Of a stretch of 28,179 nt of DNA, positions 2,687-27,157 are shown piece after piece. Positions within the stretch are counted from its first letter, which is position 1. Each line of letters opens with the position of its first letter. The stretch is from an uncultured Actinomycetes bacterium (lineage in GTDB: Bacteria; Actinomycetota; Thermoleophilia; RBG-16-64-13). The notes under the pieces were generated by a model. The model was not told the DNA's origin and did not search any database. It saw only the letters and a list, made by a program, of their open reading frames with translations. The stretch lies in NCBI GenBank assembly GCA_963706025.1, contig CAVPLM010000018.1:1-28179 (forward strand). Reading direction: 5' to 3'. The translations under genes and the position numbers were made by a program.

Positions 2687-3868
2687 TTGTCTCGAGAAGT
2701 TGTGATCCTCAGCGCCGCCCGCACGCCCGTAGGGCGCTACCTTGGCACCTTGGCGGCGATCCCGGCCTCCAAGCTTGGTGCGATCGCGATCGCCGAAGCC
2801 ATCAAGAGGGCGGGCATCGACGTCACTGAGGTCGAAGAAGTGATCATGGGCAACGTGCTGCAGGCCGGACAGGGCCAGAATCCCGCCCGTCAGGCCTCTC
2901 TGGCCGCCGGCGTCCCCGAGGACGTCCCCGCCTGGACCCTCAACATCGTCTGCGGTTCGGGTATGAAGACCGTGCACTGCGCGGCTCAGGCCATACAGAC
3001 CGGCGACGCTGAGGTCATGGTGGCTGGCGGCATGGAGAACATGAGCATCGCCCCCTACCTGGTCCCGCAGGCCCGCCAGGGTTACCGCATGGGTGACGGC
3101 GTTCTGCAGGACGAGATGGTCCTGGACGGCCTGCAATGTGCCATCGGTCAATACCACATGGGCCTCACGGCCGAGAACGTGGCCGAGAAGTACGGGATCA
3201 CCCGCGAGATGCAGGACGAGATCGGTTACCGGAGCCAGGTGAACGCGGCCGCGGCTATCGCCAATGGCAAGTTCAAGACCGAGATCGTGCCGGTCGAGAT
3301 CCCCCAGCGCAAGGGCGACCCCCTCGTCTTCGACACCGACGAGCACGTCCGCGCTGAGACCACCCTCGAAGGGTTGGCCAAGCTCAAGCCCGCCTTCAAG
3401 AAGGACGGCACCGTCACGGCGGGTAACGCCTCCGGCATCAACGACGCCGCCGCCGCCCTCGTGGTCAGCTCGCGTGAATGGGCCGAAAAGAAGGGCATCA
3501 AGCCCTTGGCGACTCTGGTGGCCTACGCCACCGCCGCGCTCGACCCCGCCTACATGGGGATGGGCCCCTACTATGCGACTGGAAAGATCCTGGCGAAAGC
3601 CGGCATGACGCTCGACCAGATGGACGTCATCGAGGCCAACGAGGCCTTCGCAGCTCAAGCCGGCGCCGTGGCGCAGGAGCTGGGCCTCGACATGAGCAAG
3701 GTGAACGTCTACGGCGGCGCGATCGCCCTGGGGCACCCCATCGGGGCCTCGGGCGCGCGCATCCTGACCACCCTCATCCATGCTCTCAAGCAGGAGGGCG
3801 GCACCTACGGCCTGGCCACCATGTGCATAGGCGGCGGCCAGGGTATCGCCACCATCGTCAAAGTCTGA
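2687..3868 (+). CDS. Acetyl-CoA C-acetyltransferase (thiolase)
   Basis: TTG start after AAAGGAGA; [15 protein letters not shown] (catalytic Cys), [25 protein letters not shown]. Confidence 0.97.
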
Positions 3869-5979: not shown

Positions 5980-6056
<77 letters not shown>

Positions 6057-6060
6057 TCAC

Positions 6061-6092
6061 TAAAGCCCTGCAAATGCGCAGGGCTTTACTTC
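6061..6092 (+). terminator. Hairpin after the tRNA (terminator-like, at the island end)
   Basis: TAAAGCCCTGC-aaatgc-GCAGGGCTTTA followed by CTTC. Confidence 0.7.
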
Positions 6093-6261
6093 TATGTAGT
6101 GTCCCCAGAACTAGCCGTGATTCGGGGCAAATCCAACGACCTGCCAACGTACGGGCGGCAACAGGGCGGCACGAAACGGGCCTGAGACCATCGGGCGAAT
6201 TCTCCCCATCTTGTGCCGCGCAAATGACATCTTCCGGTGCGTCTAGGCCTGACCTTACACG

Positions 6262-6699
6262 CGGGATCTGGTCCTCGTCGACTACCTCCAACTTATGGAC
6301 ATCGGCAAGGATTCCCGGGTGGAAGGCACCACGCGTAACTCCCACGGCCTTAAGCGCCTTGCTAAGAAATACGGGTGCGCGGTGCTCTGTCTCTCGCAAC
6401 TATCCCGGCCCCAGGAGCGGGTGAAAGCCTACACGCCCGGGATCTTCGACCTACGCGACTCTGGAGCAATCGAAGCAAGCGCCGACCAGATCATCTTCGT
6501 CTATCGAGAGCGAGAGCCGGGCAACGAGACACCTCGTGACGATGGCGCCTTCGTCGTGGCCAAAGCCAGGATGGGCCGCACCGGCATGCAGAGCTTCGTC
6601 TTTGATGGAGCCACCCAGCAGTTCGAGACGAAGGCGGTCGCTGAGGAACGCGCTGCCATACAGGGCTGGAGCGTCTACCAGGGCGGAGGGGAGCCGTGA
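6262..6699 (+). pseudogene. DnaB-like replicative helicase, C-terminal fragment
   Basis: DLVLVDYLQL (Walker B, from 6265), LSQLSR, DLRDSGAIEASADQIIFVYR, AKARMGRTG; no Walker A or N-terminal half, with an in-frame stop just upstream. Confidence 0.88.
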
Positions 6700-7342: not shown

Positions 7343-7398
7343 GAAATGCGCTTGGCCTGACGGTCCGGTCGACGATTCCTATTGTCATCGTGCCGCAT

Positions 7399-7523
7399 AA
7401 ACGGTCCCGGGGGTTCAAATCCCCCTTCCGCTCAAGAAAGCCACGAACGGCTTGTTGAGACCCGGTTCCGAGGGCCGGGTTCTCGCCTCTTTCGGGCCTG
7501 GTCGGGGGCAAACTGGACGGCAG
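7399..7523 (+). repeat. tRNA-Ser-like att repeat R1
   Basis: CGGTCCCGGGGGTTCAAATCCCCCTTCCGC-tcaa-GAAAGCCACGAACGGC...GACCCGG..CCGGGTT...TCGGGGGCAAAC; aligns over its length with R2. Confidence 0.85.
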
Positions 7524-7776
7524 AGAACGAACCCAGACGCCAGGTGATGAGTCGAAACGGACGCCGGTGCGCCGGTCGGCTGGAGTCTCAATACCCGACC
7601 TCCCTGCTGTCGTCTGTGCATGGCAACGAGGCTCTGCGGGTACTCCTGCATTACAGATTGGCTCCGAGCGGCCCCACTTGTCGGTCGTGGCTCTCATTTC
7701 GCCGCTCGACCCCATGATTGCTGTCGCCTGGACGGCGGACTTAGCGACAAACGGCGTGTCCTGGGGAGGTAGCGCG

Positions 7777-9012
7777 ATGGAACGTCTCGACGTCATGGTC
7801 GTAGGTGCCGGACAGGCGGGCTTGGCATTAAGTCACGAGCTGACCGCTGCTGGGGTGGAACACGCTGTGCTCGAGCGCGGCCGCGTTGGAGAGACGTGGC
7901 GGCACCGTTGGGATACCTTCTGCCTGGTCACCCCCAACTGGACCGTGCAGTTGCCCGGCCACCCATACCGCGGGGCCGATCCCGACGGCTTCATGCTGCG
8001 CAATGAGATCGTCTCCACCTTGGAAGACTACGCCGCCGGCTTCGAGGCTCCGGTTCGGGAAGGCGTCCTGGTCACCGGAATCGAGTCGATACCCGAGGGA
8101 GGCTTCATTGTACACACGGCGGCCGGGGACTTCAGCAGCCGCGCCCTCGTGCTCGCTAACGGCGCCTTCCAGCGGCCGCACCGGCCTGCGGCGGCTGACA
8201 CGCTGCCCCCCGATCTACCGCAACTGGATGTCACGAGCTATCAGAATGAAGGCATCCTGCCGCCCGGCAAGGTGCTGGTCGTCGGCAGTGGCCAGTCCGG
8301 CGCCCAGATCAGCGAGGAGTTGCGTGAGGCAGGGCGCGAGGTGGTCCTAGCCTGCGGCAAGGCGGCCTGGGTCCCGCGTCGTCTGGGCGATCGAGATATC
8401 GTCTGGTGGCTGGACAAGGTGGGTTTCTTCGAGCACACGCTGGAGTCACTGCCCAGCCCGGCCGCGCGTCTCACCCCCAACCCCATGGCTACCGGTCATG
8501 GCGGCGGCCACGACCTGCACCTGCGCACGCTCCAAGCTATGGGGGTCACCCTCACCGGGCATTTCCTGGGGGCGGAGAACGGCTTCGCCCACTTCGCGCC
8601 GGATCTCGAGGAAAGCGTCGCCTGGGGGGATGAGCGCCGCCACGAGCTGATGAGTGTGTGCGAGCGGTTTGCCGCGGAGCAGGGATTGGCTATGCCTCCC
8701 ATGGACGAGCCGAAAGCCTTCCGTGCCCATGCACCCGAACGGCTGGATCTCTCTGACTTCGGCGCTGTCATCTTCGCCGGTGGCTTCCGCCCCGACTACC
8801 GGTCCTGGCTTCCGTGGCCCGACGCGTTCGATGAACTCGGCTTCCCCTTACAGCGAGATGGCGTGAGCAGTGTCGTCCCCGGGCTGTTCTTCATGGGCGT
8901 CCATTTCCTGCGTACTCGGAAGTCCTCGCTCCTCTTCGGGGTGGGCGAGGACGCCGCCATCGTCGCCAGCCATATCGGTGACTTCCTCGCAAATGGACAA
9001 CCCAAGAGGTAG
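7777..9012 (+). CDS. Flavin-containing monooxygenase family (FAD/NAD(P)-dependent oxidoreductase)
   Basis: RBS GGAGGT; GAGQAG (FAD), WRHRWDTFCLVTPNW, GSGQSG (NADPH), AGGFRPD, GVGEDA. Confidence 0.9.
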   Translation: MERLDVMVVGAGQAGLALSHELTAAGVEHAVLERGRVGETWRHRWDTFCLVTPNWTVQLPGHPYRGADPDGFMLRNEIVSTLEDYAAGFEAPVREGVLVTGIESIPEGGFIVHTAAGDFSSRALVLANGAFQRPHRPAAADTLPPDLPQLDVTSYQNEGILPPGKVLVVGSGQSGAQISEELREAGREVVLACGKAAWVPRRLGDRDIVWWLDKVGFFEHTLESLPSPAARLTPNPMATGHGGGHDLHLRTLQAMGVTLTGHFLGAENGFAHFAPDLEESVAWGDERRHELMSVCERFAAEQGLAMPPMDEPKAFRAHAPERLDLSDFGAVIFAGGFRPDYRSWLPWPDAFDELGFPLQRDGVSSVVPGLFFMGVHFLRTRKSSLLFGVGEDAAIVASHIGDFLANGQPKR

Positions 9013-9019
9013 CACGGGA

Positions 9020-9162
9020 ACTGCGCAAGCGGTACCGGGAGTTCGAATCCCCTCTCCGCCTAGGAAAGCCAAGAATGGCGGGTCGGGACCCGGTCCGAAA
9101 AGCCGGGTTTTCGCGTCTTTTGGGCGAGTTCGGTGGCAACTCGGTGGCAAAGTCAACGGCAA
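9020..9162 (+). repeat. tRNA-Ser-like att repeat R2 (best-preserved copy)
   Basis: Variable-arm hairpin ACTGC-GCAA-GCGGT, T-arm GGGAG-TTCGAAT-CCCC, 3' TCTCCGCC, hairpin ACCCGG/CCGGGT, then TCGGTGGCAA at 9130-9139 and 9141-9150. Confidence 0.9.
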
Positions 9163-9437
9163 GTATGGGTGCGAGACGGATGCGAACGCACTAGATCACA
9201 AGACGCTCTCCCCTACGGCTTCGTCTATCGACATCGCTTCGATTGACCCAGAGTCGAGTCGGCCTATACTGGAGCCATACGGGGAGCGAGTCAGTCTCCC
9301 CCACGTAGCTCGCCGGCCGCCGGATGGGAGCCTCGCGCAAGTCCCCACCTACGCCGAGCCGCAGTGATGCGGACCGACCAGGATTCATGGGTCGAAGTAG
9401 GCGGGAGGCATGCGAACGACGTGATGGAGCAGGGGAA

Positions 9438-9650
9438 ATGTGGGTGTTAGTCCTTCTGGTCGTAGGGATAACCTTCTGCGCGGAAACCGTCATAGGTGTC
9501 GCGCTCCACGTGCGGTCGAGCCGAAAGGCAAAGAGGATGAGCATCGCCGAATACCTGGACCAGGGAAGGGTCGGAGCGACCACTCGTGGGGAGAAGCCAG
9601 ATGCGGATCGCCCAAGTCCGGTTCCTGGACCAACAGCCTGGAAACAATGA
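9438..9650 (+). CDS. Small single-pass membrane protein (70 aa)
   Basis: ATG after GGAGCAGGGG; hydrophobic N-terminus MWVLVLLVVGITFCAETVIGVAL; stop abuts R3. Confidence 0.55.
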   Translation: MWVLVLLVVGITFCAETVIGVALHVRSSRKAKRMSIAEYLDQGRVGATTRGEKPDADRPSPVPGPTAWKQ

Positions 9651-9651
9651 G

Positions 9652-9770
9652 AAGCGGCTATCCGTACGGGGGTTTCGGGGATTCCTTGAGATGAGGCCCC
9701 GTCTCAGTGGCCAGGTTTTCGCATGTCTCAGGCGAGTTCGGTGGCAACTCGGTGGCAAACTCGACAGCAA
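9652..9770 (+). repeat. tRNA-Ser-like att repeat R3 (5' part degenerate)
   Basis: GGCGAGTTCGGTGGCAACTCGGTGGCAAA at 9731-9759 is identical (29 bp) to 9123-9151; 5' remnant AAGCGG...TACGGGGGTT. Confidence 0.8.
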
Positions 9771-9870
9771 CAAACGGGGAGGACACTTCCCCGCCCGGTT
9801 GCATGCGCAGACATCGGGGTATGAACCTGGTCAGTGGTATTCACAGGGCATCGACTCGTGAGGAGGAGAA

Positions 9871-11172
9871 ATGCCTGCCATCGACCGACCCCCAGGCGCC
9901 CAAGACATGATGGATTTCGCTCTCGTCGACGCTCTGCTCGGCCGGCGCTCTCGACGCTTCTTTCAGGGTGCGGAGATACCGGATGGCGTGTTCGCCTACT
10001 CGTCGCGGGCAGAACCTCTGCCCCTGACTGACCTTGAGAAACTGCTCGTTGTGGGAGCCTGTAGCGGCAACACCAGTTGGCATCACATGATATTCCGCGG
10101 ACAGCGGTATGCTCCTCACCTCGCTAACTACGCCGGAGCGGCCGGTGGAAGGACATTCCCGTCTTCGGCCGGCTTCGAGACCAGCAAGACCTTCTTCACC
10201 GACGACGAGGGAGTGTACTTGGTGGAGATGCGGGACGCGCCGGCGTTCGCCGAACGAGCCGGTGATGGCTCACTGAGCCTGGACGAGTTCGTGGACAACG
10301 TTAGACTGCGCAGGCGCAGGATCAAGGACGGCCGTCTCGGCGTGCCCTCCGAGCCTCCCTTCACCGAGGCCCACAACACCTGGGTCTTCAACAAGCCCTC
10401 GACCCTCGTCGTCATCCCGGTGGGCGACGTGTCTCAGCACCTCCTCCTTGGGCTCTGCTACCTCCTGCAGAACGGCATCGTCCTCTACGACGACATCAAC
10501 AGGCGAGCCATCCCCGGGATCGAGGGCTTCGGGGATATCGTGGACACGGGCAGCGTATGGCCCATCACCGTCGCGGAGTTATCGGTCTTCGCCGAGGTGA
10601 ACGTGGAGCTGGGAACGAGCTGCTACGCGGGCGCCCTGATGCTCCAGGCCCTGGGGCTAGGGGGATGGATGTTCAACGGCGTCGATCCATTCACCGTGCT
10701 GGGAGCAAGCGGAGATCCCCGGGCTCCCGGATTGGGCTTCCGCTATGACACCGACGAGCGCTGGCCCTATCCGAATCCCACCGGTCTGGAGGGAGTGATG
10801 GAGGGATTCTGCCCTCCCCACTATGCCGACATGCGGGCGGCAGTCGAGGCGGTCTGTGAACGCAAGTTCGGCTCGGGCGGGCCGTTCAACCCAGCCACGC
10901 CGGGACCCTGGAAAGCCAGCGGCAAGGTGCGTGGGGCTGCCCAGGTCCACGACGAGCGCTTCAGGGAATGCGTGGCTCTGCAGGCCCAGTACATTTATGA
11001 CACCTTCGGGAAGTTCCCCGGCACGGTCCCCTCCATGTTCGTGAGCATGTACCTTCAGGCTCATCACTTGGACACCGCGTTCTATGACGAGTTCTTCAAG
11101 CCCGGAGCCTACCTGGAGACGCATGCGCATCACATGGAGCGCTGGCATCCTGACTTGAGGGCCGAAACATGA
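9871..11172 (+). CDS. Conserved hypothetical protein, probably nitroreductase/SagB-like flavoprotein fold
   Basis: RBS AGGAGGAG; ALLGRRSRRF (RRSxR FMN-binding-like), RTFPSSAG, LMLQALGLGGW. Confidence 0.7.
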   Translation: MPAIDRPPGAQDMMDFALVDALLGRRSRRFFQGAEIPDGVFAYSSRAEPLPLTDLEKLLVVGACSGNTSWHHMIFRGQRYAPHLANYAGAAGGRTFPSSAGFETSKTFFTDDEGVYLVEMRDAPAFAERAGDGSLSLDEFVDNVRLRRRRIKDGRLGVPSEPPFTEAHNTWVFNKPSTLVVIPVGDVSQHLLLGLCYLLQNGIVLYDDINRRAIPGIEGFGDIVDTGSVWPITVAELSVFAEVNVELGTSCYAGALMLQALGLGGWMFNGVDPFTVLGASGDPRAPGLGFRYDTDERWPYPNPTGLEGVMEGFCPPHYADMRAAVEAVCERKFGSGGPFNPATPGPWKASGKVRGAAQVHDERFRECVALQAQYIYDTFGKFPGTVPSMFVSMYLQAHHLDTAFYDEFFKPGAYLETHAHHMERWHPDLRAET

Positions 11173-11978
11173 TACCCGTCGTCAAGTCCATTGAGCTTCC
11201 CAACCAGGTGAGGCTGCCCTACTCGGAGCAGGGAGACCCGTACGGTGTGCCTTTGCTGCTGCTGCACGGCTTCACGGACTCATTACGCTCCTTCGATCTC
11301 GTGTTGCCTCACCTCCCCACATCCGTCCGGGCCATCGCGATCACGCAAAGGGGCCACGGCGACGCCAGTCGGCCCGCGGCAGGGTACCTTGTCTCCGATC
11401 TTGCGGCGGATCTAGCGGCATTCATGGATGTCATCCACCTGGAGGCCGCCTTCATCGCCGGCGCCTCCTCGGGTGGCCTCGTAGCCCAGCGCTTTGCGAT
11501 GGATCACCCCGAGCGCGTACTGGGTCTTGTGCTCGTGGGCTCGCCCGTGACACTGCGAAACAAACCGGGCGTGGTGAAAGCCTGGAACTCGAGGATATCG
11601 AAGCTCAGCGATCCGATCGACCCGGCGTTCGTGCGCCAGTTCGTCAAGAGCACCGCGACCAAGACGATACCGCAGGCGTTCTTCGAGACCATGGTGCAAG
11701 AGAGCCTGAAGCTACCGGCATTTGTATGGAAAGCAGCAATCGAGGGCTTCCTGAAAGACGACTTCACTGCCGAGCTTCACAAGATCAAGGCTCCCACATT
11801 GATCATCTGGGGCGATCAGGATGCTTTCACGCGAGACGATCAGGAGATCCTCCTGGCAGCCGTCAAGAACTCGAGGCGGCTGATCTACCACGGCGCCGGA
11901 CACACGCTCATCGCGGAGGAGCCTGAACGCCTTGCTGCCGATCTTGTGGCCTTCGTGGAGAGCGTCACAGCTCCCTGA
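11169..11978 (+). CDS. Alpha/beta fold hydrolase
   Basis: LLHGFTDS oxyanion motif, RGHG, nucleophile elbow GASSG, WGDQD, GAGH; ATGA overlap with the previous gene. Confidence 0.92.
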   Translation: MIPVVKSIELPNQVRLPYSEQGDPYGVPLLLLHGFTDSLRSFDLVLPHLPTSVRAIAITQRGHGDASRPAAGYLVSDLAADLAAFMDVIHLEAAFIAGASSGGLVAQRFAMDHPERVLGLVLVGSPVTLRNKPGVVKAWNSRISKLSDPIDPAFVRQFVKSTATKTIPQAFFETMVQESLKLPAFVWKAAIEGFLKDDFTAELHKIKAPTLIIWGDQDAFTRDDQEILLAAVKNSRRLIYHGAGHTLIAEEPERLAADLVAFVESVTAP

Positions 11979-11981
11979 GGG

Positions 11982-12112
11982 AAGCGGAGGGTACCGGGGG
12001 TTCGAATCCCCCCCTCCGCCTGTTTCACAGGGCTTGCTTGCTCTGAAGCCCGATGCCGGTGGCCGGTTCTTGGCGTCCTTTCGGCGATTTCGGTGACAAA
12101 GTCGTTGACACG
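11982..12112 (+). repeat. tRNA-Ser-like att repeat R4
   Basis: AAGCGGAGGGTACCGGGGGTTCGAATCCCCCCCTCCGCC, then GCCGGTTCTTGGCGTCCTTTCGGCGATT and arm-like TCGGTGACAA (12090-12099) / TCGTTGACAC (12102-12111). Confidence 0.85.
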
Positions 12113-12197
12113 AGACGTGACGACAGGGACGAGAAGACGCCAAGCGAGCTGCGCGATGGCGGGACAGCTGAAACACCGGTGAAGACGTGGCGGCCGC

Positions 12198-12770
12198 TCA
12201 TTCCTCCCGCCGGCCTTGGCTCCGCTGTCTCTCGATGGTCTCGGCCAACTCCTCAGCGCGCTGCGAGCCGAGCATGACGCGCCGGCCGTCGCGCAGCGTG
12301 AGATCGACACCCCTGTGGCCACTGACGTTGTAGGCGACCTTCTTCCGCGACCATCCCTTGATCCCCCAGCCGCCGTACTCTCCGATGGGGCTGTAGCTGC
12401 GAACCTCCAGTCTTTCGATCTCGTCCAGCCGGAGGACACGCTTGGACAGGGGACGGTACCGGATGAGCAACTCGCGGGACGTGACTTCGAGCACCAGCTC
12501 GAGCCGGGCGAAGAACAGCGGCAGGCCCACTCCGATCACCAACCATAGCAGCCATACTCCCCAGTCGGGGGCAGGATTGCCTCCGAACGGCCGGCCGAGC
12601 AGGATCTGCTGGGCGAAGCTCCACCAGCCGAGTGCGGTGAGCCCGGCGACCAGCACCCACAGCCACCACTGACGGAAGCGTTGCTCCTCATGGTAGACGG
12701 TCGACCCGGAGAGCCGCTGAGGCAGATCACCCTTCGCCGCAGCGTTGCCCCTTGATCGCACCGCGGACAT
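12198..12770 (-). CDS. DUF6141-like membrane protein
   Basis: EEQRFRQWWLW, two TM helices, YSPIGEYGGWGIK, AYNVSGHRGV, LGSQRAEEL. Confidence 0.75.
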   Translation of the reverse strand: MSAVRSRGNAAAKGDLPQRLSGSTVYHEEQRFRQWWLWVLVAGLTALGWWSFAQQILLGRPFGGNPAPDWGVWLLWLVIGVGLPLFFARLELVLEVTSRELLIRYRPLSKRVLRLDEIERLEVRSYSPIGEYGGWGIKGWSRKKVAYNVSGHRGVDLTLRDGRRVMLGSQRAEELAETIERQRSQGRREE

Positions 12771-12776
12771 TCCTTT

Positions 12777-13352
12777 CTACTTCTCCACCGGATACCCGGC
12801 CTCTACCCAACCAGAGTAGTTGCCCTGCAGACGGTATACGGTCGGAAAACCCGCATCCACGAGCGCCTGGGCGCCTGCTATGGCAACACTGTCCACGTGG
12901 CAGTAGACGAGGTACGGGACCTCCTTGTCGAGGGTGGGGATGGCCGCTTCGAGGGAGCCGTCACCCAGGTAGTAGCTGACCGCGCCGGGTAGGTGGCCCT
13001 CATCATAGTGAGGGGAGACATCTATGATCACCAGGTCCGGCGTCGTCTCGATGAGGCTCTGGGCCTGCTGTGGAGTGAGGTCGGTAAATGAGCCAGGCTT
13101 CGCTTCGGGAATGTCGATGTCCTCAGTGGTGGTGCTCGTAGTCGTCTGTTCGCTCATGGTCGTAGCAGTTGTGCCGACCTCAGTCGTCGTCGTGCCCCCT
13201 GGCATCGTTGTGGTGGCGGGCATGGCCGTCGTTGTGCTCTGAGGCACCGTGGTCGTGTCAGTGGCGGCCTCGTCACCGCAGGCGGCGAGGACCATGGCGG
13301 CTGCGACTAGGACAAGGACGAAGACAAGACCGGCTAACGAGAACCTCTTCAT
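12777..13352 (-). CDS. Rhodanese-like domain lipoprotein
   Basis: Lipobox LAAC, Thr-rich linker, IIDVS..YDEGHLPGA, VYCH active-site loop, LQGNYSGW. Confidence 0.85.
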   Translation of the reverse strand: MKRFSLAGLVFVLVLVAAAMVLAACGDEAATDTTTVPQSTTTAMPATTTMPGGTTTTEVGTTATTMSEQTTTSTTTEDIDIPEAKPGSFTDLTPQQAQSLIETTPDLVIIDVSPHYDEGHLPGAVSYYLGDGSLEAAIPTLDKEVPYLVYCHVDSVAIAGAQALVDAGFPTVYRLQGNYSGWVEAGYPVEK

Positions 13353-13800
13353 GATCCCCCCTCACTCTTTGAGGCACGAAGCCTCTCCCTGGCACACGCC
13401 GAGGGTATGCCCCCTTTTGGCCTCGACCAAACCGCGTTTCCTCCGCTGGGAAAGGAGCCGTGGGCGCACTCCGCCACGTTCTTCCGTACCGCGATGACTT
13501 CTGGCTTCTTCTGAGGCGTGTGGGATCCCTGGGCCTCAATAGCATGCGCGGTTCCTTGCCGGCAGGCTGAGGATTCGGACTCTGCGGAGTTCCACGTTTG
13601 GCTGTATTCACCGTTGCCCGGCTCCCAGCTACTCTGCCATTCCTGGGGAAACGTCGAAAACCGGAGAGGCAGATTCCCGGGCGACCGGTCACCGCCGGGT
13701 TTCAGCGGGTGGCCGACCACACATGAGGGAGGGGGTCATGAACAGCGTGCACCTGATCGCGGCTGGGGCGTCTCAGTACTGAGGGATCCGTTTCCCCGGG

Positions 13801-14181
13801 CTAGTCCACGCGTTCGGCCTCCTGGACGCACTCGGCCTCCCGTTCGACCCTCTCCTTCTGGCGGGCGCGCTTGAATAGATCCCGGTAGTAAGTCAGGTGC
13901 CAGCTGAGGTGGAAGATCGAGACCACCGCCATGACCACCCCTGCCTCCACGTGCCAGAAGATGAGGTTGAAGGGGACGCTGAAGAGCAACGCGTACTCTC
14001 GCCTGATGGCCATCGTGAGCCCGAACCCGGCCACCACCAAGAACGATCCAAGCAGGAGGACGTTCCAGACCTTGCGATGGGTGGTGACCTTGATGCGCTT
14101 CGTCCTGTAGAGGACAAAGCTCGCGGCGTATATCACCATTAGACCGAGGGCGATGGGACTGATGCTGTAGGTGCCGGACAC
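13801..14181 (-). CDS. Membrane protein, cytochrome b-like/DUF4405-type, probable partner of the molybdoenzyme
   Basis: Three hydrophobic helices with conserved-looking His residues (HRKVWN, FWHVEAG, FHLSWH); GTG start 8 nt below the oxidoreductase stop. Start uncertain. Confidence 0.6.
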   Translation of the reverse strand: MSGTYSISPIALGLMVIYAASFVLYRTKRIKVTTHRKVWNVLLLGSFLVVAGFGLTMAIRREYALLFSVPFNLIFWHVEAGVVMAVVSIFHLSWHLTYYRDLFKRARQKERVEREAECVQEAERVD

Positions 14182-14188
14182 GGGGAGG

Positions 14189-14892
14189 CTACTCGAACGC
14201 CGGTCCGTCGTCGTCGGCGTTGTTGTTGTACCCGGCGCGCTCCCAGTATCCGCGGAAGTCGGCATCCGATGACAGCTCTATCCGAGTGACCCACTTGGCC
14301 CATTTGTAGCCGAACTTGCTCTTGGCCACCACCTGCAGAGGGAAGCCTCTCTCGGGCGGCAGGGTGAGGTCGTTTATCTTCAGCGCGAGCAGGATGTTGT
14401 TCTCGAGGATGTAGTCCAGATCCAATGACGTGTATCCAGTAGGCACATCCGCGCTGTAGAAGATGGCTATGATCGCCTCGGGCTTGACTTGGGCATCCGC
14501 GAGGATCGCGCTGAGCGACGGGCCGGTCCATTTGGCCGTGAACTCCACCCTTCGACACAGTTGAGATCCATCAACCAGGATTCTTGTTCATATGACTCGA
14601 GGTCCGTGTACGACAGGGAAAGCGGCTCTCCCACCAGACCGTCCACCGTCAGCACGTAGGAATCTCCGTCGATGATCTGAGTACCTTTCAGGGCGTTGTT
14701 GCCCTGCTTGTTGATGGGGGTCAGTTTCACGCCCTGGAACTCGGTGGCCTCCACTTCTCCTGGGGGCTGGGGACCGGTCGTAGCACTGGCGGGTGCGGAC
14801 CCGCCGTCACCACAACCGAGAACGATCGCTGCCATGGCCAGGGTCACGAGCACGGCAAGAAATGACAATGCGAGCAGCGTCTTGATTCTCAT
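14189..14892 (-). CDS. Molybdopterin-dependent oxidoreductase (sulfite oxidase/MsrP family) lipoprotein, one frameshift near 14550
   Basis: Lipobox VLGC, LTVDGLV, DLNCVEGW (Mo-ligand Cys), then in the next frame AKWTG, LPPERGFPL, FGYKWAKWV, GYWE. Confidence 0.85.
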
Positions 14893-15033
14893 TGCTCCCC
14901 CCGCTGTGTAGGCTGTTAGCTCTGGTTACCCAGTGAGCAGGAAAAGAACACTCAAGACCCCGGTACGAACAGCCATCGGGAACTCGGTGACTCGTTCACG
15001 TGCACCGGCTCATCTTTCAGCAGAGCGTGGAAG

Positions 15034-15142
15034 GAAGCCGGGGGGTTGGAATACTCCCCCCGCTTCAGAAAGCCAAGAATGGCTATCAAGAACCCGGCCC
15101 ACGCGGCTGGGTTCTGGTGCCTTTTGGGTGAGTTCGGCTGCG
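15034..15142 (+). repeat. tRNA-Ser-like att repeat R5
   Basis: GAAGCCGGGGGGTTGGAATACTCCCCCCGCTTC; GAAAGCCAAGAATGGC at 15068-15083 identical to 9064-9079; hairpin AGAACCCGGCC/GGCTGGGTTCT; CTTTTGGGTGAGTTCGG. Confidence 0.85.
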
Positions 15143-15226
15143 AGCCAGGGACCGACGGCATGAGGGACGAGACCGTCTGGTACCCTGATGCCCGACGATC
15201 GTAACCCGCACCCGCAAGGAGGTTGA

Positions 15227-15756: not shown

Positions 15757-16470
15757 TCACCCCGGCATGAACAGCGCGGCGATCTTGGCGGCCGCCTCTT
15801 CCTCCATGGCGGGGATGGCGTGGGAGTAGACATCCAGGGTGATGCTGATGTTGGCGTGGCCCAGGCGCTCGGAGACCACCTTGGGGTGGATGCCGGCCTG
15901 CAGGGCCAGGGTGGCGTGGGTGTGGCGTAGATCGTGCAGGCGGATCCGGGGCTGCCCGGAGGCCTCGACGGCTTTCTGGAACGACTGGGTCACGAAGTCG
16001 GGATGATAGGGTCGCCCGTTCTCTTGTCGGAAGACGTAGCCGCTATCCACGTATCCGGCCGTCTTCCAAAGCAGCTGCTCCTCCAGCTGCTGCTTGCGGT
16101 GAGCCTTGAGCACGGCGAGCGTGGCCGGGTCGACCGAGACGTTCCGTCCGCGTCCGTTCTTCGGTTTGCCGATGTGGACCACGTAGCCGACCGGCACCAT
16201 GTTCTGCCGGATGGAGAGCCGGGCGTTCTCCATGTCCACGTCCTCCCACCTCAGCCCCAGCGCCTCTCCCCGCCTCATGCCGGTGCTGGCCAGAAGCAGC
16301 CAGAGGGGATAGAGGCGGGATCTCTCTGGTTGAGACGAGGAAGGCTTGCAGTTCCTTGGCGCTCCAGGTCTTCATCTCGTGGGTCATCGCCGCGCGGGTT
16401 CTGGGTGGGTCGGCGGCGTCGGCCGGATTGCGGGTGATGCGGTTCCAGCGCACGGCGGGGGACCATCCAG
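15757..16470 (-). pseudogene. Tyrosine recombinase/integrase, 5'-truncated and frameshifted
   Basis: TGMRRGE (R), RLHDLRHTHAT (HxxR), RLGHANI (H), VYSH (Y); upstream RNPADAADPP...TWSAKEL in another frame (shift ~16320); N-terminal domains missing. Confidence 0.92.
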
Positions 16471-16531: not shown

Positions 16532-17377
16532 ATGGACGAACGCCCGACAGGTGAATACGGTCTCTCGGCGGGCATCGCTCTGGCTGGGAGTCTAGCTGAC
16601 GCCGGTCGGTACGTCTTCACCACAGACGATGCTGTCGAGCTGCGTCCTGCGGGTGTCCGCCCGGAGACTGTTCCTCGCTTGCTCAAGTCGCTCGCCGACG
16701 CCGGTTGGATCATCCGCCTGCGCCGGGGCCTGTATGCCGGAACGGGGAAGCTCCCCGGAGGAGTGGACGTGCCGCCCTTCACGATCGCGACTTCATTGGT
16801 GAAACCGTCGGCTATCGCCCATCTGTCTGCTCTTGCCCACCATGGCCTGACGGATCAGATCCCTTTATCGACCAGCGCGATCACCACTCGAAAGGTCGTG
16901 ACCCCGAGCATGCGAGGGGCGCAGCCTCTGGATGGCCCGCAAGTCTGGCATGCGGCCGGACTTGACCTCCGGTACGTGGTGGTGGTCCCCTCACACTTCG
17001 ATCTAGGACTGGAGATGATCTGGCTAGACGAACGTTTTCGGGTGCCCATCACCGACCCAGAGCGAACGGTGCTGGATCTGTTCGCCCTGCCGCGACTATT
17101 CGGGGGAGTCGGAGAAGGCATGAGAGTTTTCGAGCAGTTTCGGGAGGGCATCGACCTGGCGAAGCTGGTCGCGTACGCTCTCCGGTACGGCTCGGTTGCT
17201 GTAGCCAAACGCCTGGGATGGACCCTCGAAGCGACCGGCGCCGGCCCGGCGGTGCTCGCGCCGCTTCGTGAACTCAGATCGTCCAGCTACAGCGCTCTGG
17301 ACCCGGGCCGGATCCGCCGTGGCCGGTACGACCGGGGCTGGATGATCATCGACAACCGCGCTGAAGACCGGGTCTAG
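16532..17377 (+). CDS. AbiEi-family antitoxin / transcriptional regulator (orphan)
   Basis: wHTH with GWIIRLRRGLY; SAIAHLSALAHHGLTDQIP; ITDPERTVLD; KRLGW. No toxin ORF follows. Confidence 0.88.
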   Translation: MDERPTGEYGLSAGIALAGSLADAGRYVFTTDDAVELRPAGVRPETVPRLLKSLADAGWIIRLRRGLYAGTGKLPGGVDVPPFTIATSLVKPSAIAHLSALAHHGLTDQIPLSTSAITTRKVVTPSMRGAQPLDGPQVWHAAGLDLRYVVVVPSHFDLGLEMIWLDERFRVPITDPERTVLDLFALPRLFGGVGEGMRVFEQFREGIDLAKLVAYALRYGSVAVAKRLGWTLEATGAGPAVLAPLRELRSSSYSALDPGRIRRGRYDRGWMIIDNRAEDRV

Positions 17378-17544
17378 CCGTACCGCGTACGTAGATTTGC
17401 GCTGATTCGTCATATTCACGCCGGCGTGAATATGGGCGGTTTCTGAAATCACGGAAGAACTCACTCCTACTTAGCGGCCATTCCTCCTGCAAAACTGAGC
17501 GAAAGTCGCTATATTAAGCAAACATAATGGCGCTATCATACAAT

Positions 17545-18336
17545 ATGAGCTTCCCCAGTCTGTCTGCCTTCGTTGATGACACCCAGGCAGCGGGCCGCTA
17601 CACCTTCTCGAGCTCGGAGGCTCGAGATGCGTTGGATGTTTCAGAGATCGCACTCGATAACGCTCTTCGGCGCCAGAAGGATCGGGGGCGACTCGTGGCG
17701 CCGCGCCGCGGCTTCTTCGTGATCGTACCCACGGAGTACCGAGCCGCCGGTGCTCCGCCTCCGTCGTGGTTCATCGATGATCTGATGAGATTCCTGGGAC
17801 AGCCCTACTACGTCGGTCTTCTCTCGGCTGCCGGTCTTCATGGCGCTTCGCATCAGCAGTCCATGGTCTTCCAGGTAGTGACCGACCGCCCCACCCGTCC
17901 GCCGAAGGCCGGGCGAGCTCGTATCGAATTCCACGCGACCCGCACCGCGGAAGCCTCGCCCGCCACAGGCATGCAGACCGAAACGGGCGCCATGCGCGTT
18001 TCTACCCCTGAGACGACTGCGTTCGATGTGGTGAAGTTCTCGGCGGCCTGCGGGGGCTGGAGCAACGTGGCGATGGTGCTCTCCGAACTGGCGGAGCGCA
18101 TCGACCCGGGGTCGCTTCACGCCTTGGCTGAACTGCGGAAGAGCCCCGAGGTACAGCGGCTTGGCTTCCTTCTGGATCAGGCGGGTCAGTCTCGTCTTGC
18201 CGATGTGCTCCTGCGCGCGCTCGCGGCGAGACGCTATCGTCCGGTACTACTCGCCGGTGATATGCCGCAGGGCGGCGCGGTCTCTGTAGTCCCCTGGCGC
18301 GTGATTCCCAATATAGAGATAGAGCTCGATCTGTGA
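17545..18336 (+). CDS. AbiEi-family antitoxin
   Basis: GRYTFS, RRGFFVIVPTEY, YYVGLLSAAGLHGASHQ, STPETTAFD, QRLGFLL. Start is 17527 or 17545. Confidence 0.88.
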   Translation: MSFPSLSAFVDDTQAAGRYTFSSSEARDALDVSEIALDNALRRQKDRGRLVAPRRGFFVIVPTEYRAAGAPPPSWFIDDLMRFLGQPYYVGLLSAAGLHGASHQQSMVFQVVTDRPTRPPKAGRARIEFHATRTAEASPATGMQTETGAMRVSTPETTAFDVVKFSAACGGWSNVAMVLSELAERIDPGSLHALAELRKSPEVQRLGFLLDQAGQSRLADVLLRALAARRYRPVLLAGDMPQGGAVSVVPWRVIPNIEIELDL

Positions 18337-21408: not shown

Positions 21409-21452
21409 CTCATAACCCGAAGGTCGCAGGTTCAAATCCTGCCCCCGCTACC
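21409..21452 (+). repeat. att site: duplicate of the tRNA-fMet 3' 44 nt
   Basis: Identical to 6012-6055. Confidence 0.97.
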
Positions 21453-21824
21453 TTTTTGCCTGCAAATCGGGGTCTTATCTTCAAGACTCCGATTTGAACC
21501 CTGCGACCGCCTGAGGACTCATCATCCCGCATGCACTGCTCCTGCTGAGCGTCAACGCGCCGCCGGCGACGAAGCGGCACGAAGACCCTCGGGGGCAGTG
21601 AGAGGCTGGGCCGTCCCACGTCATGGGGCGGGATTGATGGACATTGATGCGGAAGAAGTCCGCGTCGTTGCGCTCTTCTCCACCGATCCGCCGGAACACC
21701 CTGCAAAGCCTGATGTTATGGGGAGTGGGGATTCGCCGAAAATGAGACTCTGAGGTGGGCCGTTCGTCGCTTCAGGGTGACTGTCGGGCTCACATCGCCG
21801 TCGTTTCCGATTCGATTGATCCGG

Positions 21825-27026: not shown

Positions 27027-27072
27027 GCCCCCGCTACCATCAGAAAGCCCCGTAGAAAGCGGAGCTTTACTT
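27027..27072 (+). repeat. Third tRNA-fMet 3' fragment plus homologous downstream hairpin
   Basis: GCCCCCGCTACCATCA identical to 6044-6059, followed by AAAGCCC...GCTTTACTT as at 6062-6091. Confidence 0.8.
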
Positions 27073-27099
27073 TAGGGAAGCAAGCTTTGGAACCCTCTC

Positions 27100-27157
27100 C
27101 GCCCACGTCTTGCCCACGGTTTGCCCACGAAATTGCCCGTGATAAGCCCGTGATAAG
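27100..27157 (+). repeat. Cluster of short direct repeats (GCCCACG x3, GCCCGTGATAA x2)
   Basis: cGCCCACGtcttGCCCACGgtttGCCCACGaaattGCCCGTGATAAGCCCGTGATAAG with 11-12-bp period. Confidence 0.85.

Follow-up and report, generated by a model that had tools for sequence, protein, structure and literature searches.

Co-Oriented Arrays of tRNA-Ser(CGA)-Derived Repeats Delimit Small, Mostly Integrase-Less Units in Uncultured Thermoleophilia

Organization of the Locus

The stretch of DNA analyzed in this study (28,179 bp, hereafter referred to as the window) represents the entire contig C18 (CAVPLM010000018.1) of the metagenome-assembled genome (MAG) G000, featuring a size of 3.66 Mb, a GC content of 64%, a completeness of 92%, and a contamination of 7.3%. 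It harbors an array of five Ser-type repeats (R1 to R5), all located on the plus strand and separated by 1480, 482, 2204, and 2898 bp. Each repeat is composed of a block of identity to the 3' part of tRNA-Ser(CGA), designated O, and of a conserved sequence on its 3' side, designated the arm; together, the five repeats delimit four units. Five repeats of common orientation had been described in an initial annotation made from the sequence alone, and the profile searches (nhmmer envelopes) and the alignment carried out here reproduced them, with starts agreeing within approximately 10 nt.

The window begins its array region with a tRNA-Met gene, which is followed by a Met-type arm, a DnaB_C fragment, an open reading frame (ORF) of 143 aa, R1 to R5 with their four units, and a tyrosine integrase pseudogene lying 585 bp past R5. 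Beyond the pseudogene, two AbiEi genes, a helicase fragment, a MarR-like gene, and, at position 21409, a tRNA-Met fragment were identified (Table 1). The 3'-terminal 44 nt of the tRNA-Met gene recur exactly at 21409–21452 and partially at 27027–27064, a hairpin and a direct-repeat arm following in each case; the arm of the latter site was found to be 85% identical to the arm located after the tRNA-Met gene of G003, a congener of G000. These recurrences, which had been overlooked in the initial annotation, indicate that the Ser-type array lies inside an island bounded by tRNA-Met sequences, where it is nested within the first unit of a Met-type array. As stated in that annotation, no tRNA-Ser gene was detected in the window by ARAGORN, the tRNA-Met gene (5980–6056) being the sole call, as well as the sole match in an Rfam scan of the window. 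Three of the window genes are encoded on the strand of the repeats and three on the opposite strand.

Table 1. Coordinates of the features located in the window, with the evidence used for their assignment.
Feature	Position	Strand	Evidence
tRNA-Met(CAT) gene, anchor of the outer island	5980..6056	+	ARAGORN; Rfam tRNA, 65 bits
Met-type arm, composed of a terminator-like hairpin (6061-6088) and direct repeats 3' of it, GGGCGGCAAC/AGGGCGGCAC	6057..6180	+	Resembles the arm after the 21409 fragment (repeat family D12)
DnaB-type helicase gene fragment, C-terminal part only	6295..6699	+	Pfam DnaB_C, E 7e-24, profile positions 147-254 of 255
R1: tRNA-Ser(CGA) 3' fragment, T-loop TTCAAAT, and arm	7390..7538	+	nhmmer, E 2e-34; alignment
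Unit 1 cargo: FAD/NAD(P)-dependent oxidoreductase or monooxygenase	7567..9012	+	Pfam Pyr_redox_3, E 8e-21
R2, best-preserved copy: tRNA fragment, spacer, terminator-like hairpin 9085-9111, two times TCGGTGGCAA	9018..9165	+	nhmmer, E 2e-39
Unit 2, stub without convincing gene; promoter-like TTGACC-16-TATACT (9243-9270) and conserved leader	9166..9646	+	
R3: tRNA part decayed, arm intact	9647..9773	+	nhmmer, model positions 26-150, E 4e-26
Unit 3 cargo: 433-aa protein without Pfam family and alpha/beta hydrolase	9871..11978	+	Pfam
R4: tRNA-Ser fragment, second spacer type, diverged arm repeats (TCGGTGACAA...)	11977..12125	+	nhmmer, E 2e-30
Unit 4 cargo: DUF6141, rhodanese, small membrane ORFs, molybdopterin oxidoreductase fragment	12198..14892	-	Pfam
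R5: decayed copy, T-loop TTGGAAT, hairpin 15089-15115	15023..15172	+	nhmmer, E 4e-30
Tyrosine integrase pseudogene (frameshift, N-terminus missing), tRNA-Met-associated clade	15757..16456	-	PF00589, E 2e-24; reading frames; tblastn; tree
Two AbiEi-type antitoxin/regulator genes	16532..18336	+	Pfam; synteny
Second Met junction: exact 44-nt tRNA-Met 3' fragment and Met-type arm	21409..21590	+	Repeat families D5, D12
Third Met junction: partial tRNA-Met 3' fragment and arm (TTGCCCACG repeats)	27027..27150	+	Repeat family D8

Anatomy of the Repeat

The tRNA portion of the repeats corresponds to the 3' part of tRNA-Ser(CGA), from the variable arm or the T-arm through the acceptor end. It is followed by an arm of 100–150 nt, composed of a spacer, a GC hairpin (ACCCGG..CCGGGT) with a run of T, and direct repeats of the motif TCGGnGGCAA. 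R1, R2, and R5 share the spacer GAAAGCCAAGAAyGG, and R4 carries a second spacer type; GAAAGCCAAGAATGGC is exact in R2 and R5 and occurs in R1 as GAAAGCCACGAACGGC, with two differences. Of the direct repeats, R2 and R3 contain exactly the version given in the initial annotation, and diverged versions were found in R1, R4, and R5. Most of the tRNA part is missing from R3, and mutations were observed in the T-loops of R1, R3, and R5. In R1 (7409–7430 compared with 6030–6050), this region reads GGTTCAAATCC, as in the neighboring tRNA-Met gene and unlike GGTTCGAATCC of tRNA-Ser, which may be due to chance or represent a trace of exchange between site types.

In a larger alignment, conservation extended approximately 50 nt further (..ACTCGnCAGCA..GAGACGGACG..CACCGGA). 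The element is therefore about 150–200 nt long instead of the approximately 120 bp assigned to it initially, the remaining architecture (tRNA-Ser-like part, hairpin, and direct repeats) being retained. TCGGnGGCAA was observed two to three times per copy at 11-bp spacing and appeared to be nearly invariant in 67 copies. Upstream of the core, no matching repeats were found, and no arm-type motif was enriched in the 250 nt preceding each of 50 full copies.

On the 3' side of several arms, a conserved module of approximately 230 nt was observed, featuring a sigma-70-like promoter (TTGAC-N16/17-TATACT), a leader hairpin (GGGGAG..CTCCCC), and a strong ribosome-binding site (GAGGAGGAGGTG). It is present in the window (9200–9400), in G000 at C5:~685000–685530(-), C11:72258–72500(+), C11:~94850–95090(-), and C10:~29200–29480(-), and at L001:13908–14150 (L numbers denoting individual extracted loci). 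The module is followed by differing ORFs with signal-peptide-like starts, the window copy being a stub devoid of an ORF. The leader located 3' of the arms matched no Rfam family, and L001:13700–14400 yielded only sub-threshold matches, placed on the tRNA fragment itself. Moreover, a conserved non-coding insert of approximately 215 nt was found, flanked on one side by a complete tRNA-Ser 3' end and on the other by a further copy whose start lies exactly in the T-loop (..GATGCG/CGAATCCCC..). This insert, located in G000 at C8:41289–41645 and C11:71971–72137 as well as in L063, L084, L096, L105, L114, L130, L140, L146, and L152, recurs in many samples and resembles a miniature passenger using the same attachment (att) site.

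Occurrence of the Arm behind Genuine tRNA Genes

A profile built from R1 to R5 yielded 43 matches in G000 at E<1e-3, 38 of them beyond the window. One of these (E 3e-31) is located on contig C7 and represents a genuine tRNA-Ser(CGA) gene; on its 3' side, the spacer, the hairpin, and the arm repeats of the array copies recur. The same arm was identified 3' of the tRNA-Ser(CGA) genes of G007, a member of another genus, and of G011, as well as at no fewer than 15 named MAG loci. Analogous arms were detected 3' of tRNA-Met, -Phe, -Leu, and -Ser(TGA) genes, next to convergent integrases. The grammar of these sites comprises the tRNA end, a terminator-like hairpin, and two or three direct repeats of a related motif spaced at 11 bp (TGCCAACG, GGCGGCAAC), with a convergent tyrosine integrase of 380–450 aa starting approximately 100 bp away, and was recognized at tRNA-Met and tRNA-Arg/Ser(GCT) in G007, at tRNA-Ser(TGA) in G013, and at tRNA-Leu(TAA) in G014. 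Since the same arm follows true tRNA genes and the grammar is shared, the arm is read as the P' arm of an attP site. Its hairpin would replace the terminator displaced by integration, and its direct repeats represent putative arm-type integrase sites.

The left edge of the tRNA identity was located between tRNA positions 31 and 68 in 74 copies, the core common to all copies being the symmetric T-arm GGGGG-TTCGAAT-CCCCC together with the 3' end. Approximately 30 copies begin in the T-loop, where at least four unrelated upstream sequences are joined at the identical point TT^CGAATCC. For islands residing in tRNA genes (tDNA islands), PMC4383910 distinguishes tyrosine integrases with T-stem and with anticodon-centered crossover classes; a crossover in the T-loop, as suggested by the common junction, would fit the T-stem class of attachment sites. 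Fragments in the congener G001 carry the variable-arm variant of the tRNA-Ser of other genera (GCCGTGCAAACGG), indicating that the variable-arm part arrived with the elements. The att origin supposed in the initial annotation is thus borne out by the arm found 3' of real tRNA-Ser(CGA) genes, and the repeats are very probably junction scars derived from att sites.

Distribution of the Arrays

In total, 37 out of the 43 matches in G000 were assigned to five co-oriented arrays, located on C18 (n = 5), C10 (n = 5), C5 (n = 6), C8 (n = 13), and C7 (n = 8); solitary or partial copies outside arrays were detected at C3:5312, C3:200321, C8:130366, and C11:95090. Two identical tRNA-Ser(CGA) genes of this genome, on C7 and C8, are each positioned at the head of an array, and both arrays have a 3.5-kb unit in common (81% identity). 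Among the relatives, the arrays comprise 33 copies over 103 kb in G001 (contig C6), 14 copies over 28 kb in G007, 12 copies in G003, and 8 copies in G011. With R2 as the query, matches were obtained in 16 out of 18 other genomes of the family versus none of the 12 genomes from other families of the class. Including G000, 19 genomes of the family were searched, and 7 of them, from four genera, gave at least five matches. The MAG loci recovered in a pattern scan for the arm belong to uncultured Thermoleophilia, Gaiellales, and Actinomycetota. Among 80 metagenome contigs featuring the arm, 40 hold at least two copies, which are co-oriented in all 40 cases. The median of 95 listed array spacings amounts to approximately 2.0 kb. 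Arrays reach up to approximately 100 kb, corresponding to roughly 3% of a genome.

These results bear on the possibility that the repeat is a tRNA-derived element resembling repetitive extragenic palindromic (REP) sequences, miniature inverted-repeat transposable elements (MITEs), or short interspersed nuclear elements (SINEs), and spreads on its own irrespective of islands. The few solitary or partial copies outside arrays and the conserved insert of approximately 215 nt in the T-loop of some copies would be compatible with such an element. However, most copies reside in the five co-oriented arrays downstream of tRNA genes, and co-orientation was observed without exception on the multi-copy contigs, so that the genome-wide scatter regarded in the initial annotation as incompatible with its proposal was not encountered. 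Furthermore, neither terminal inverted repeats nor target duplications were found around the copies, and a copy corresponds to the sequence downstream of a true tRNA gene. Because co-oriented arrays were found rather than scatter, this explanation was excluded as highly improbable.

Along the arrays, the profile scores were not monotonic with distance from the tRNA gene. Since no decay gradient is apparent, a simple order in which the oldest unit is the furthest one was dropped.

Cargo of the Units and Associated Integrases

None of the units located between R1 and R5 encodes an integrase, in agreement with the initial annotation; the sole PF00589 match of the window is the pseudogene beyond R5, which had been missed there. 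Using ten full-length integrases of the family as tblastn queries, remnants were detected within or next to the examined arrays (94 units, 259 kb) at just five sites, namely, the window pseudogene, C10:28007–28276, and three sites in G001:C6. The same search revealed no remnants in the C5, C7, and C8 arrays nor in the arrays of G003, G007, and G011. Genes of the arrays were called by means of a crude filter based on ORFs and GC content at third codon positions, with no trained gene finder, and 6 of the 149 called ORFs crossed locus borders and were removed before the Pfam tally. The resulting 143 ORFs of four arrays feature 141 Pfam families, none of which occurs in more than three ORFs, and Phage_integrase was assigned to two of them. 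Over nine arrays, 126 cargo genes are encoded on the same strand as the repeat and 102 on the opposite strand, with 0 to 15 genes per unit.

An integrase tree comprising 15 rows placed the integrases located beside tRNA-Ser(CGA) arrays (L048, L050, and the G001 pseudogene) in one clade (support 100/99), and the tRNA-Phe integrases also grouped together. The window pseudogene was paired (100/100) with the integrase of G067 (78% identity), which is located distal to a tRNA-Met gene and a tRNA-Met fragment. Intact integrases of the Ser clade (377–387 aa) are encoded by G068 and G072 in convergent orientation, 5–5.4 kb downstream of tRNA-Ser(CGA) with its arm; hence, the combination of a tRNA-Ser gene, the same arm, and a nearby intact integrase anticipated in the initial annotation does exist in relatives. 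At each of the five Ser-clade loci, arm and integrase are set apart by variable DNA, whereas sister-clade integrases lie approximately 110 bp from the tRNA gene. At L160, an integrase-bearing unit of 4.2 kb is bounded by two copies of O plus arm. A conserved ORF of approximately 75 aa (MAKTYKLTES..GMKPATLRAGLRRALK..) was observed directly downstream of the Ser-clade integrase in four out of five loci (L076:10130–10400(-), L050, L048, and G001:C6:~3000–3300(-)) and may encode a directionality factor or a regulator.

The arrays might represent a graveyard of classical tandem islands, in which each unit was once a full integrase-bearing element, deletions stripped the integrase and the backbone, and no integrase-less module was ever inserted. 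Tandem accretion and subsequent decay to cis-mobilizable elements (CIMEs) is the accepted route in streptococci (PMC5704250). Such decay was encountered in unit 1 of G001:C6 (138–9084; 8.9 kb), a decayed integrase-bearing element that still contains a pseudogene of a Ser-clade integrase together with the conserved small ORF and with the small Xer-like recombinase known from the G068 element; an N-terminal integrase remnant is also located at G001:C6:21393–21917. Truncated repeats are frequent, and many ends of shared blocks lie away from repeats, both of which likewise speak for this possibility. On the other hand, the integrase remnants number only five per 94 units, and remnants of a backbone are nearly missing. 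The reference for the latter was a 19-kb integrase-bearing element at tRNA-Ser(CGA) of G068, encoding 21 proteins, including the integrase, DUF2958, a ResIII helicase, and a small Xer-like recombinase; within the arrays, remnants of these proteins were detected only in unit 1 of G001 and at one nearby site at 21.4 kb. No recurrent mobility module emerged from the Pfam tally, and 51 full-length copies of O plus arm were kept, yet the genes expected to adjoin them left no trace. At the tRNA-Met locus of G007, a classical tandem, an integrase was retained in all three inter-fragment intervals (16–47 kb), whereas the 28-kb Ser-type array of the same genome contains none. Decay of complete islands as the origin of all units is accordingly considered rather unlikely.

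Modularity and Breakpoints

The arrays of G000, G001, and G003 have blocks of 0.5–4.4 kb in common, which are 85–95% identical and occur in a different order, one of them being inverted; several blocks exactly span the interval between two repeats. Reordered units in related arrays had been anticipated in the initial annotation, and their presence in congeners confirmed this expectation. Within 200 bp of a repeat, 37% of the 112 shared-block ends were located, compared with 14% expected. With regard to the window, homologues of unit 1 were found in other contexts in G001, G003, and G007 (75–84% identity), unit 2 is 92–95% identical to G001:C6:16036–16529, and the decayed R3 copy is present in the same form in G001 and L146. 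Parts of unit 4 are 76–77% identical to G002:C20:260–1508, which lies distal to the Ser-type array there, and for the cargo of unit 3, a search of five relatives at E<1e-15 remained without a match. In the set used for breakpoint analysis, two of the six high-scoring segment pairs with internal ends were ignored, since they resulted from an internal duplication (G001:C6 versus a locus of the same contig). The region G001:C6:40557–42848 (L003) features an internal tandem duplication of approximately 1.2 kb with many shifted self-matches, is also matched by G003:C8:46743–48728, and probably represents a repeat-rich protein gene.

At the orthologous tRNA-Met locus, G003 runs from tRNA-Met and its arm directly to the AbiEi gene, with no insert; G000 and G001 feature an insert of 10–11 kb, in which Ser-type repeats are present and the remaining content is unrelated, and the Ser-type repeat of G001 is positioned at an equivalent distance from tRNA-Met. 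The first AbiEi gene of the window is conserved beside tRNA-Met in G003 and G001, being located directly 3' of it in G003. No recognizable AbiEii toxin (Pfam) adjoins the AbiEi pair of the window. At L082 (G001:C9:440001–452000), a full-length tRNA-Ser(CGA)-like gene with the standard arm was observed on the reverse strand (~6498–6690); its anticodon is now CAA, so that ARAGORN called it a tRNA-Leu, and a tRNA-Met fragment with a Met-type arm precedes it by 250 nt. This copy and the equivalently placed repeat of G001 indicate that Ser-type junctions can travel inside Met-type islands.

Shared blocks in changed order could also be generated by RecA-type homologous and illegitimate recombination between the 150-nt repeats, which would keep and reshuffle the arrays; the repeats would then persist as terminators or insulators, and site-specific recombination would have made only the first junction or junctions. 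The inversion of one shared block and breakpoints that do not coincide at a single nucleotide within the repeats are in line with this explanation, as are the terminator-like hairpin of the arm and the promoter and leader following some arms. However, it leaves unexplained why dozens of units carry tRNA 3' fragments, including the variable-arm variants of other genera, and why four different upstream partners meet at a common T-loop junction. Moreover, double changes were found in 3 of the 14 hairpin pairs, too few to make a case for a selected hairpin structure, and terminator-like sites in the region did not exceed those in shuffled sequence (7 versus 6.3), the promoter scan giving the same overall picture. 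Recombination between repeats as the principal source of the arrays therefore appears improbable.

Parts of the window were recovered in only one DNA sequencing run, which contained 7% of the sampled words and was examined in the form of contigs. In one contig, an R2-like repeat is joined to the start of unit 3, with 644 nt skipped, and in another, the tRNA part of R4 is joined to the arm of R5 (side of 21 nt). Since either contig could represent a standard repeat copy from a relative, no inference on excision was drawn from them.

Proposed Origin of the Arrays

Considering all results, we lean slightly towards repeated insertion of integrase-less modules at tRNA-Ser(CGA), with the integrase acting in trans and deletions eroding the arrays later on. 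According to this proposal, a dedicated clade of tyrosine integrases would target tRNA-Ser(CGA) in an uncultured Thermoleophilia-type family, and each of the repeats R1 to R5 would correspond to O and the P'-type arm of attP. The arm would supply a replacement terminator hairpin for the tRNA gene, along with two to three or more arm-type repeats in 11-bp phase, to which the integrase may bind. Each insertion would rebuild the tRNA gene with the incoming O and arm and shift the older junction distally, leading to a co-oriented array. Most modules would be small (median of approximately 2 kb), cargo-only, and non-autonomous in a CIME-like manner, possibly existing as circular intermediates, and would rely on an integrase provided in trans by less common autonomous elements (4–19 kb). 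Afterwards, deletions, occasional inversion, and inter-repeat recombination would erode and shuffle the array. The window copy would then represent a secondary, decaying array flanked by tRNA-Met and by the remains of a Met-clade integrase, probably brought or recombined into this island as a block. Due to the mutated T-loops of R1, R3, and R5 and the missing cognate integrase, it is taken as a fossil and is most likely immobile now.

Several observations weigh against serial insertion of integrase-less modules. The genomes harboring the largest arrays (G000, G001, G003, and G007) are without an intact Ser-clade integrase, and G068 and G072, which encode one, hold 0 to 2 repeat copies in what is a small sample of related genomes. 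The window array is not located at tRNA-Ser, and the neighboring integrase belongs to the Met clade. Moreover, for 63% of the shared-block ends, the nearest detected repeat is over 200 bp away. Cargo is not invariably inherited together with the arm that precedes it, one and the same cargo having been found after differing arm types, and two near-identical contig pairs part at the hairpin edge (model position ~73) or in the arm (~105–114), outside the T-loop. As the breakpoints do not fall at one nucleotide and most block ends lie away from repeats, precise excision and insertion of cassettes is unsupported. Partial copies are truncated at many positions, indicating that random deletion is common, and the decayed element of G001 indicates that some units do arise by decay. 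Given the contamination of G000, arrays on separate contigs may stem from more than one strain; in particular, the C7 and C8 arrays may derive from two strains binned together. The arm pattern had no matches in viral contigs, and terminal overlaps were present in none of the 80 arm-bearing metagenome contigs, so that no circular form was seen, although neither result is evidence of absence. Element decay and homologous reshuffling probably contribute alongside the insertion of integrase-less modules.

A more far-reaching proposal, which is tentative and in our view doubtful, is that of a tRNA-based gene-capture platform analogous to the integron. Here, tRNA-Ser(CGA) would serve as a permanent insertion point, at which integrase-less circles featuring a core from the tRNA 3' half and a one-sided attP arm would be inserted and excised in trans by the dedicated integrase clade, accumulating 30 or more cassettes, and whole arrays would be movable into other tRNA islands.

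If integrase-less modules indeed insert serially at a tRNA-derived site, a second, independently evolved route to cassette arrays would exist in a lineage of Actinomycetota that inhabits soil and sediment and is poorly known. Such insertion would also imply that tRNA-targeting integrases can sustain an economy of autonomous and non-autonomous elements, and the location of much of the flexible genome in these organisms would be explained. Island finders demanding an integrase for each tandem member would overlook such arrays, for which the 150-nt repeat provides an easy marker in metagenomes.

Comparison with Known Systems

In sedentary chromosomal integrons, short and diverse units without a recombinase form long co-oriented arrays, the content of which differs between close relatives, and in the arrays described here, too, a recurring recombination-site-like repeat is located between short and diverse units. 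Unlike in integrons, no integron integrase or attI was found at the head of the array, with no IntI-specific test among the searches, and some units possess promoter-like sites of their own. An integron was considered for the window and rejected: its only PF00589 match, the pseudogene distal to R5, groups with tRNA-targeting integrases, and the arrays of G003, G007, and G011 are integrase-free, again as judged by searches other than an IntI-specific test. Integron cassettes were likewise rejected as a designation for the units, which carry genes on both strands in numbers of 0 to 15, with a promoter-like site in unit 2, and are separated by a tRNA fragment plus arm and no attC. From the cassette array envisaged initially, the non-integron nature and the mostly integrase-less units were retained; in their details, the arrays are not integron-like, the cargo genes lacking a common orientation and the sites not resembling attC.

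The ssrA islands of Dehalococcoides are arranged in tandem with repeated 3' fragments of the target gene, but are larger and encode their own integrases. XerCD/pdif modules are small, recombinase-less, and bounded by sites for a recombinase acting in trans; these plasmid-borne Xer sites measure 28 bp and have no tRNA origin.

For tandem tDNA islands, the Islander approach requires each member to have its own integrase, and 125 tandems of at least two members and 4 of at least three were counted in 2168 genomes (PMC4383910). The arrays resemble tandem tDNA islands, as portrayed there, in the regenerated tRNA gene and the displaced 3' fragments occurring as direct repeats. An intact target tRNA gene with co-oriented 3' fragments was encountered at C7, in G007 and G011, and at many MAG loci; the window array follows tRNA-Met instead. 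Unlike the Islander tandems of that text, the arrays feature 8–33 junctions each, units with a median of approximately 2 kb, nearly all of them integrase-less, and an arm of 100–150 nt at every junction.

CIMEs, as characterized in PMC5704250, are bounded by att sites, lack integration and transfer genes, depend on a neighboring autonomous element, and arise by tandem site-specific accretion (ICESt1/ICESt3-type). The array units are similar in being att-bounded without integrase and transfer genes. In contrast to known CIMEs, which are single decayed integrative and conjugative or integrative and mobilizable elements beside a helper, the arrays are long, composed of very small units with no sign of conjugation genes, and mostly without a helper in the genome.

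The tycheposon islands of Prochlorococcus are found at few tRNA genes, where repeated integration pushes older material inward and leaves partial tRNAs and fragmented integrases, the cargo being related to niche adaptation (bioRxiv 10.1101/2020.12.28.424599). Both systems have in common a tRNA-anchored accretion with tRNA fragments and broken integrases. Unlike tycheposons, which in that account possess their own recombinase, often replication genes, and occur as one or two elements per genome, the units described here lack recombinases (no search was aimed at serine recombinases), and the DnaB_C fragment of the window lies outside the Ser-type units. A regular array with a long conserved arm is not described in the part of the tycheposon paper considered here. 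No description of such arrays was found in the literature; supplements lay outside this search, and that of the tycheposon paper could hold comparable tRNA-fragment arrays. The closest kin of the arrays are CIME-type accretion and tycheposon-type tRNA islands, both of which differ from them in scale, in unit size, and in the long conserved arm that follows each tRNA fragment.

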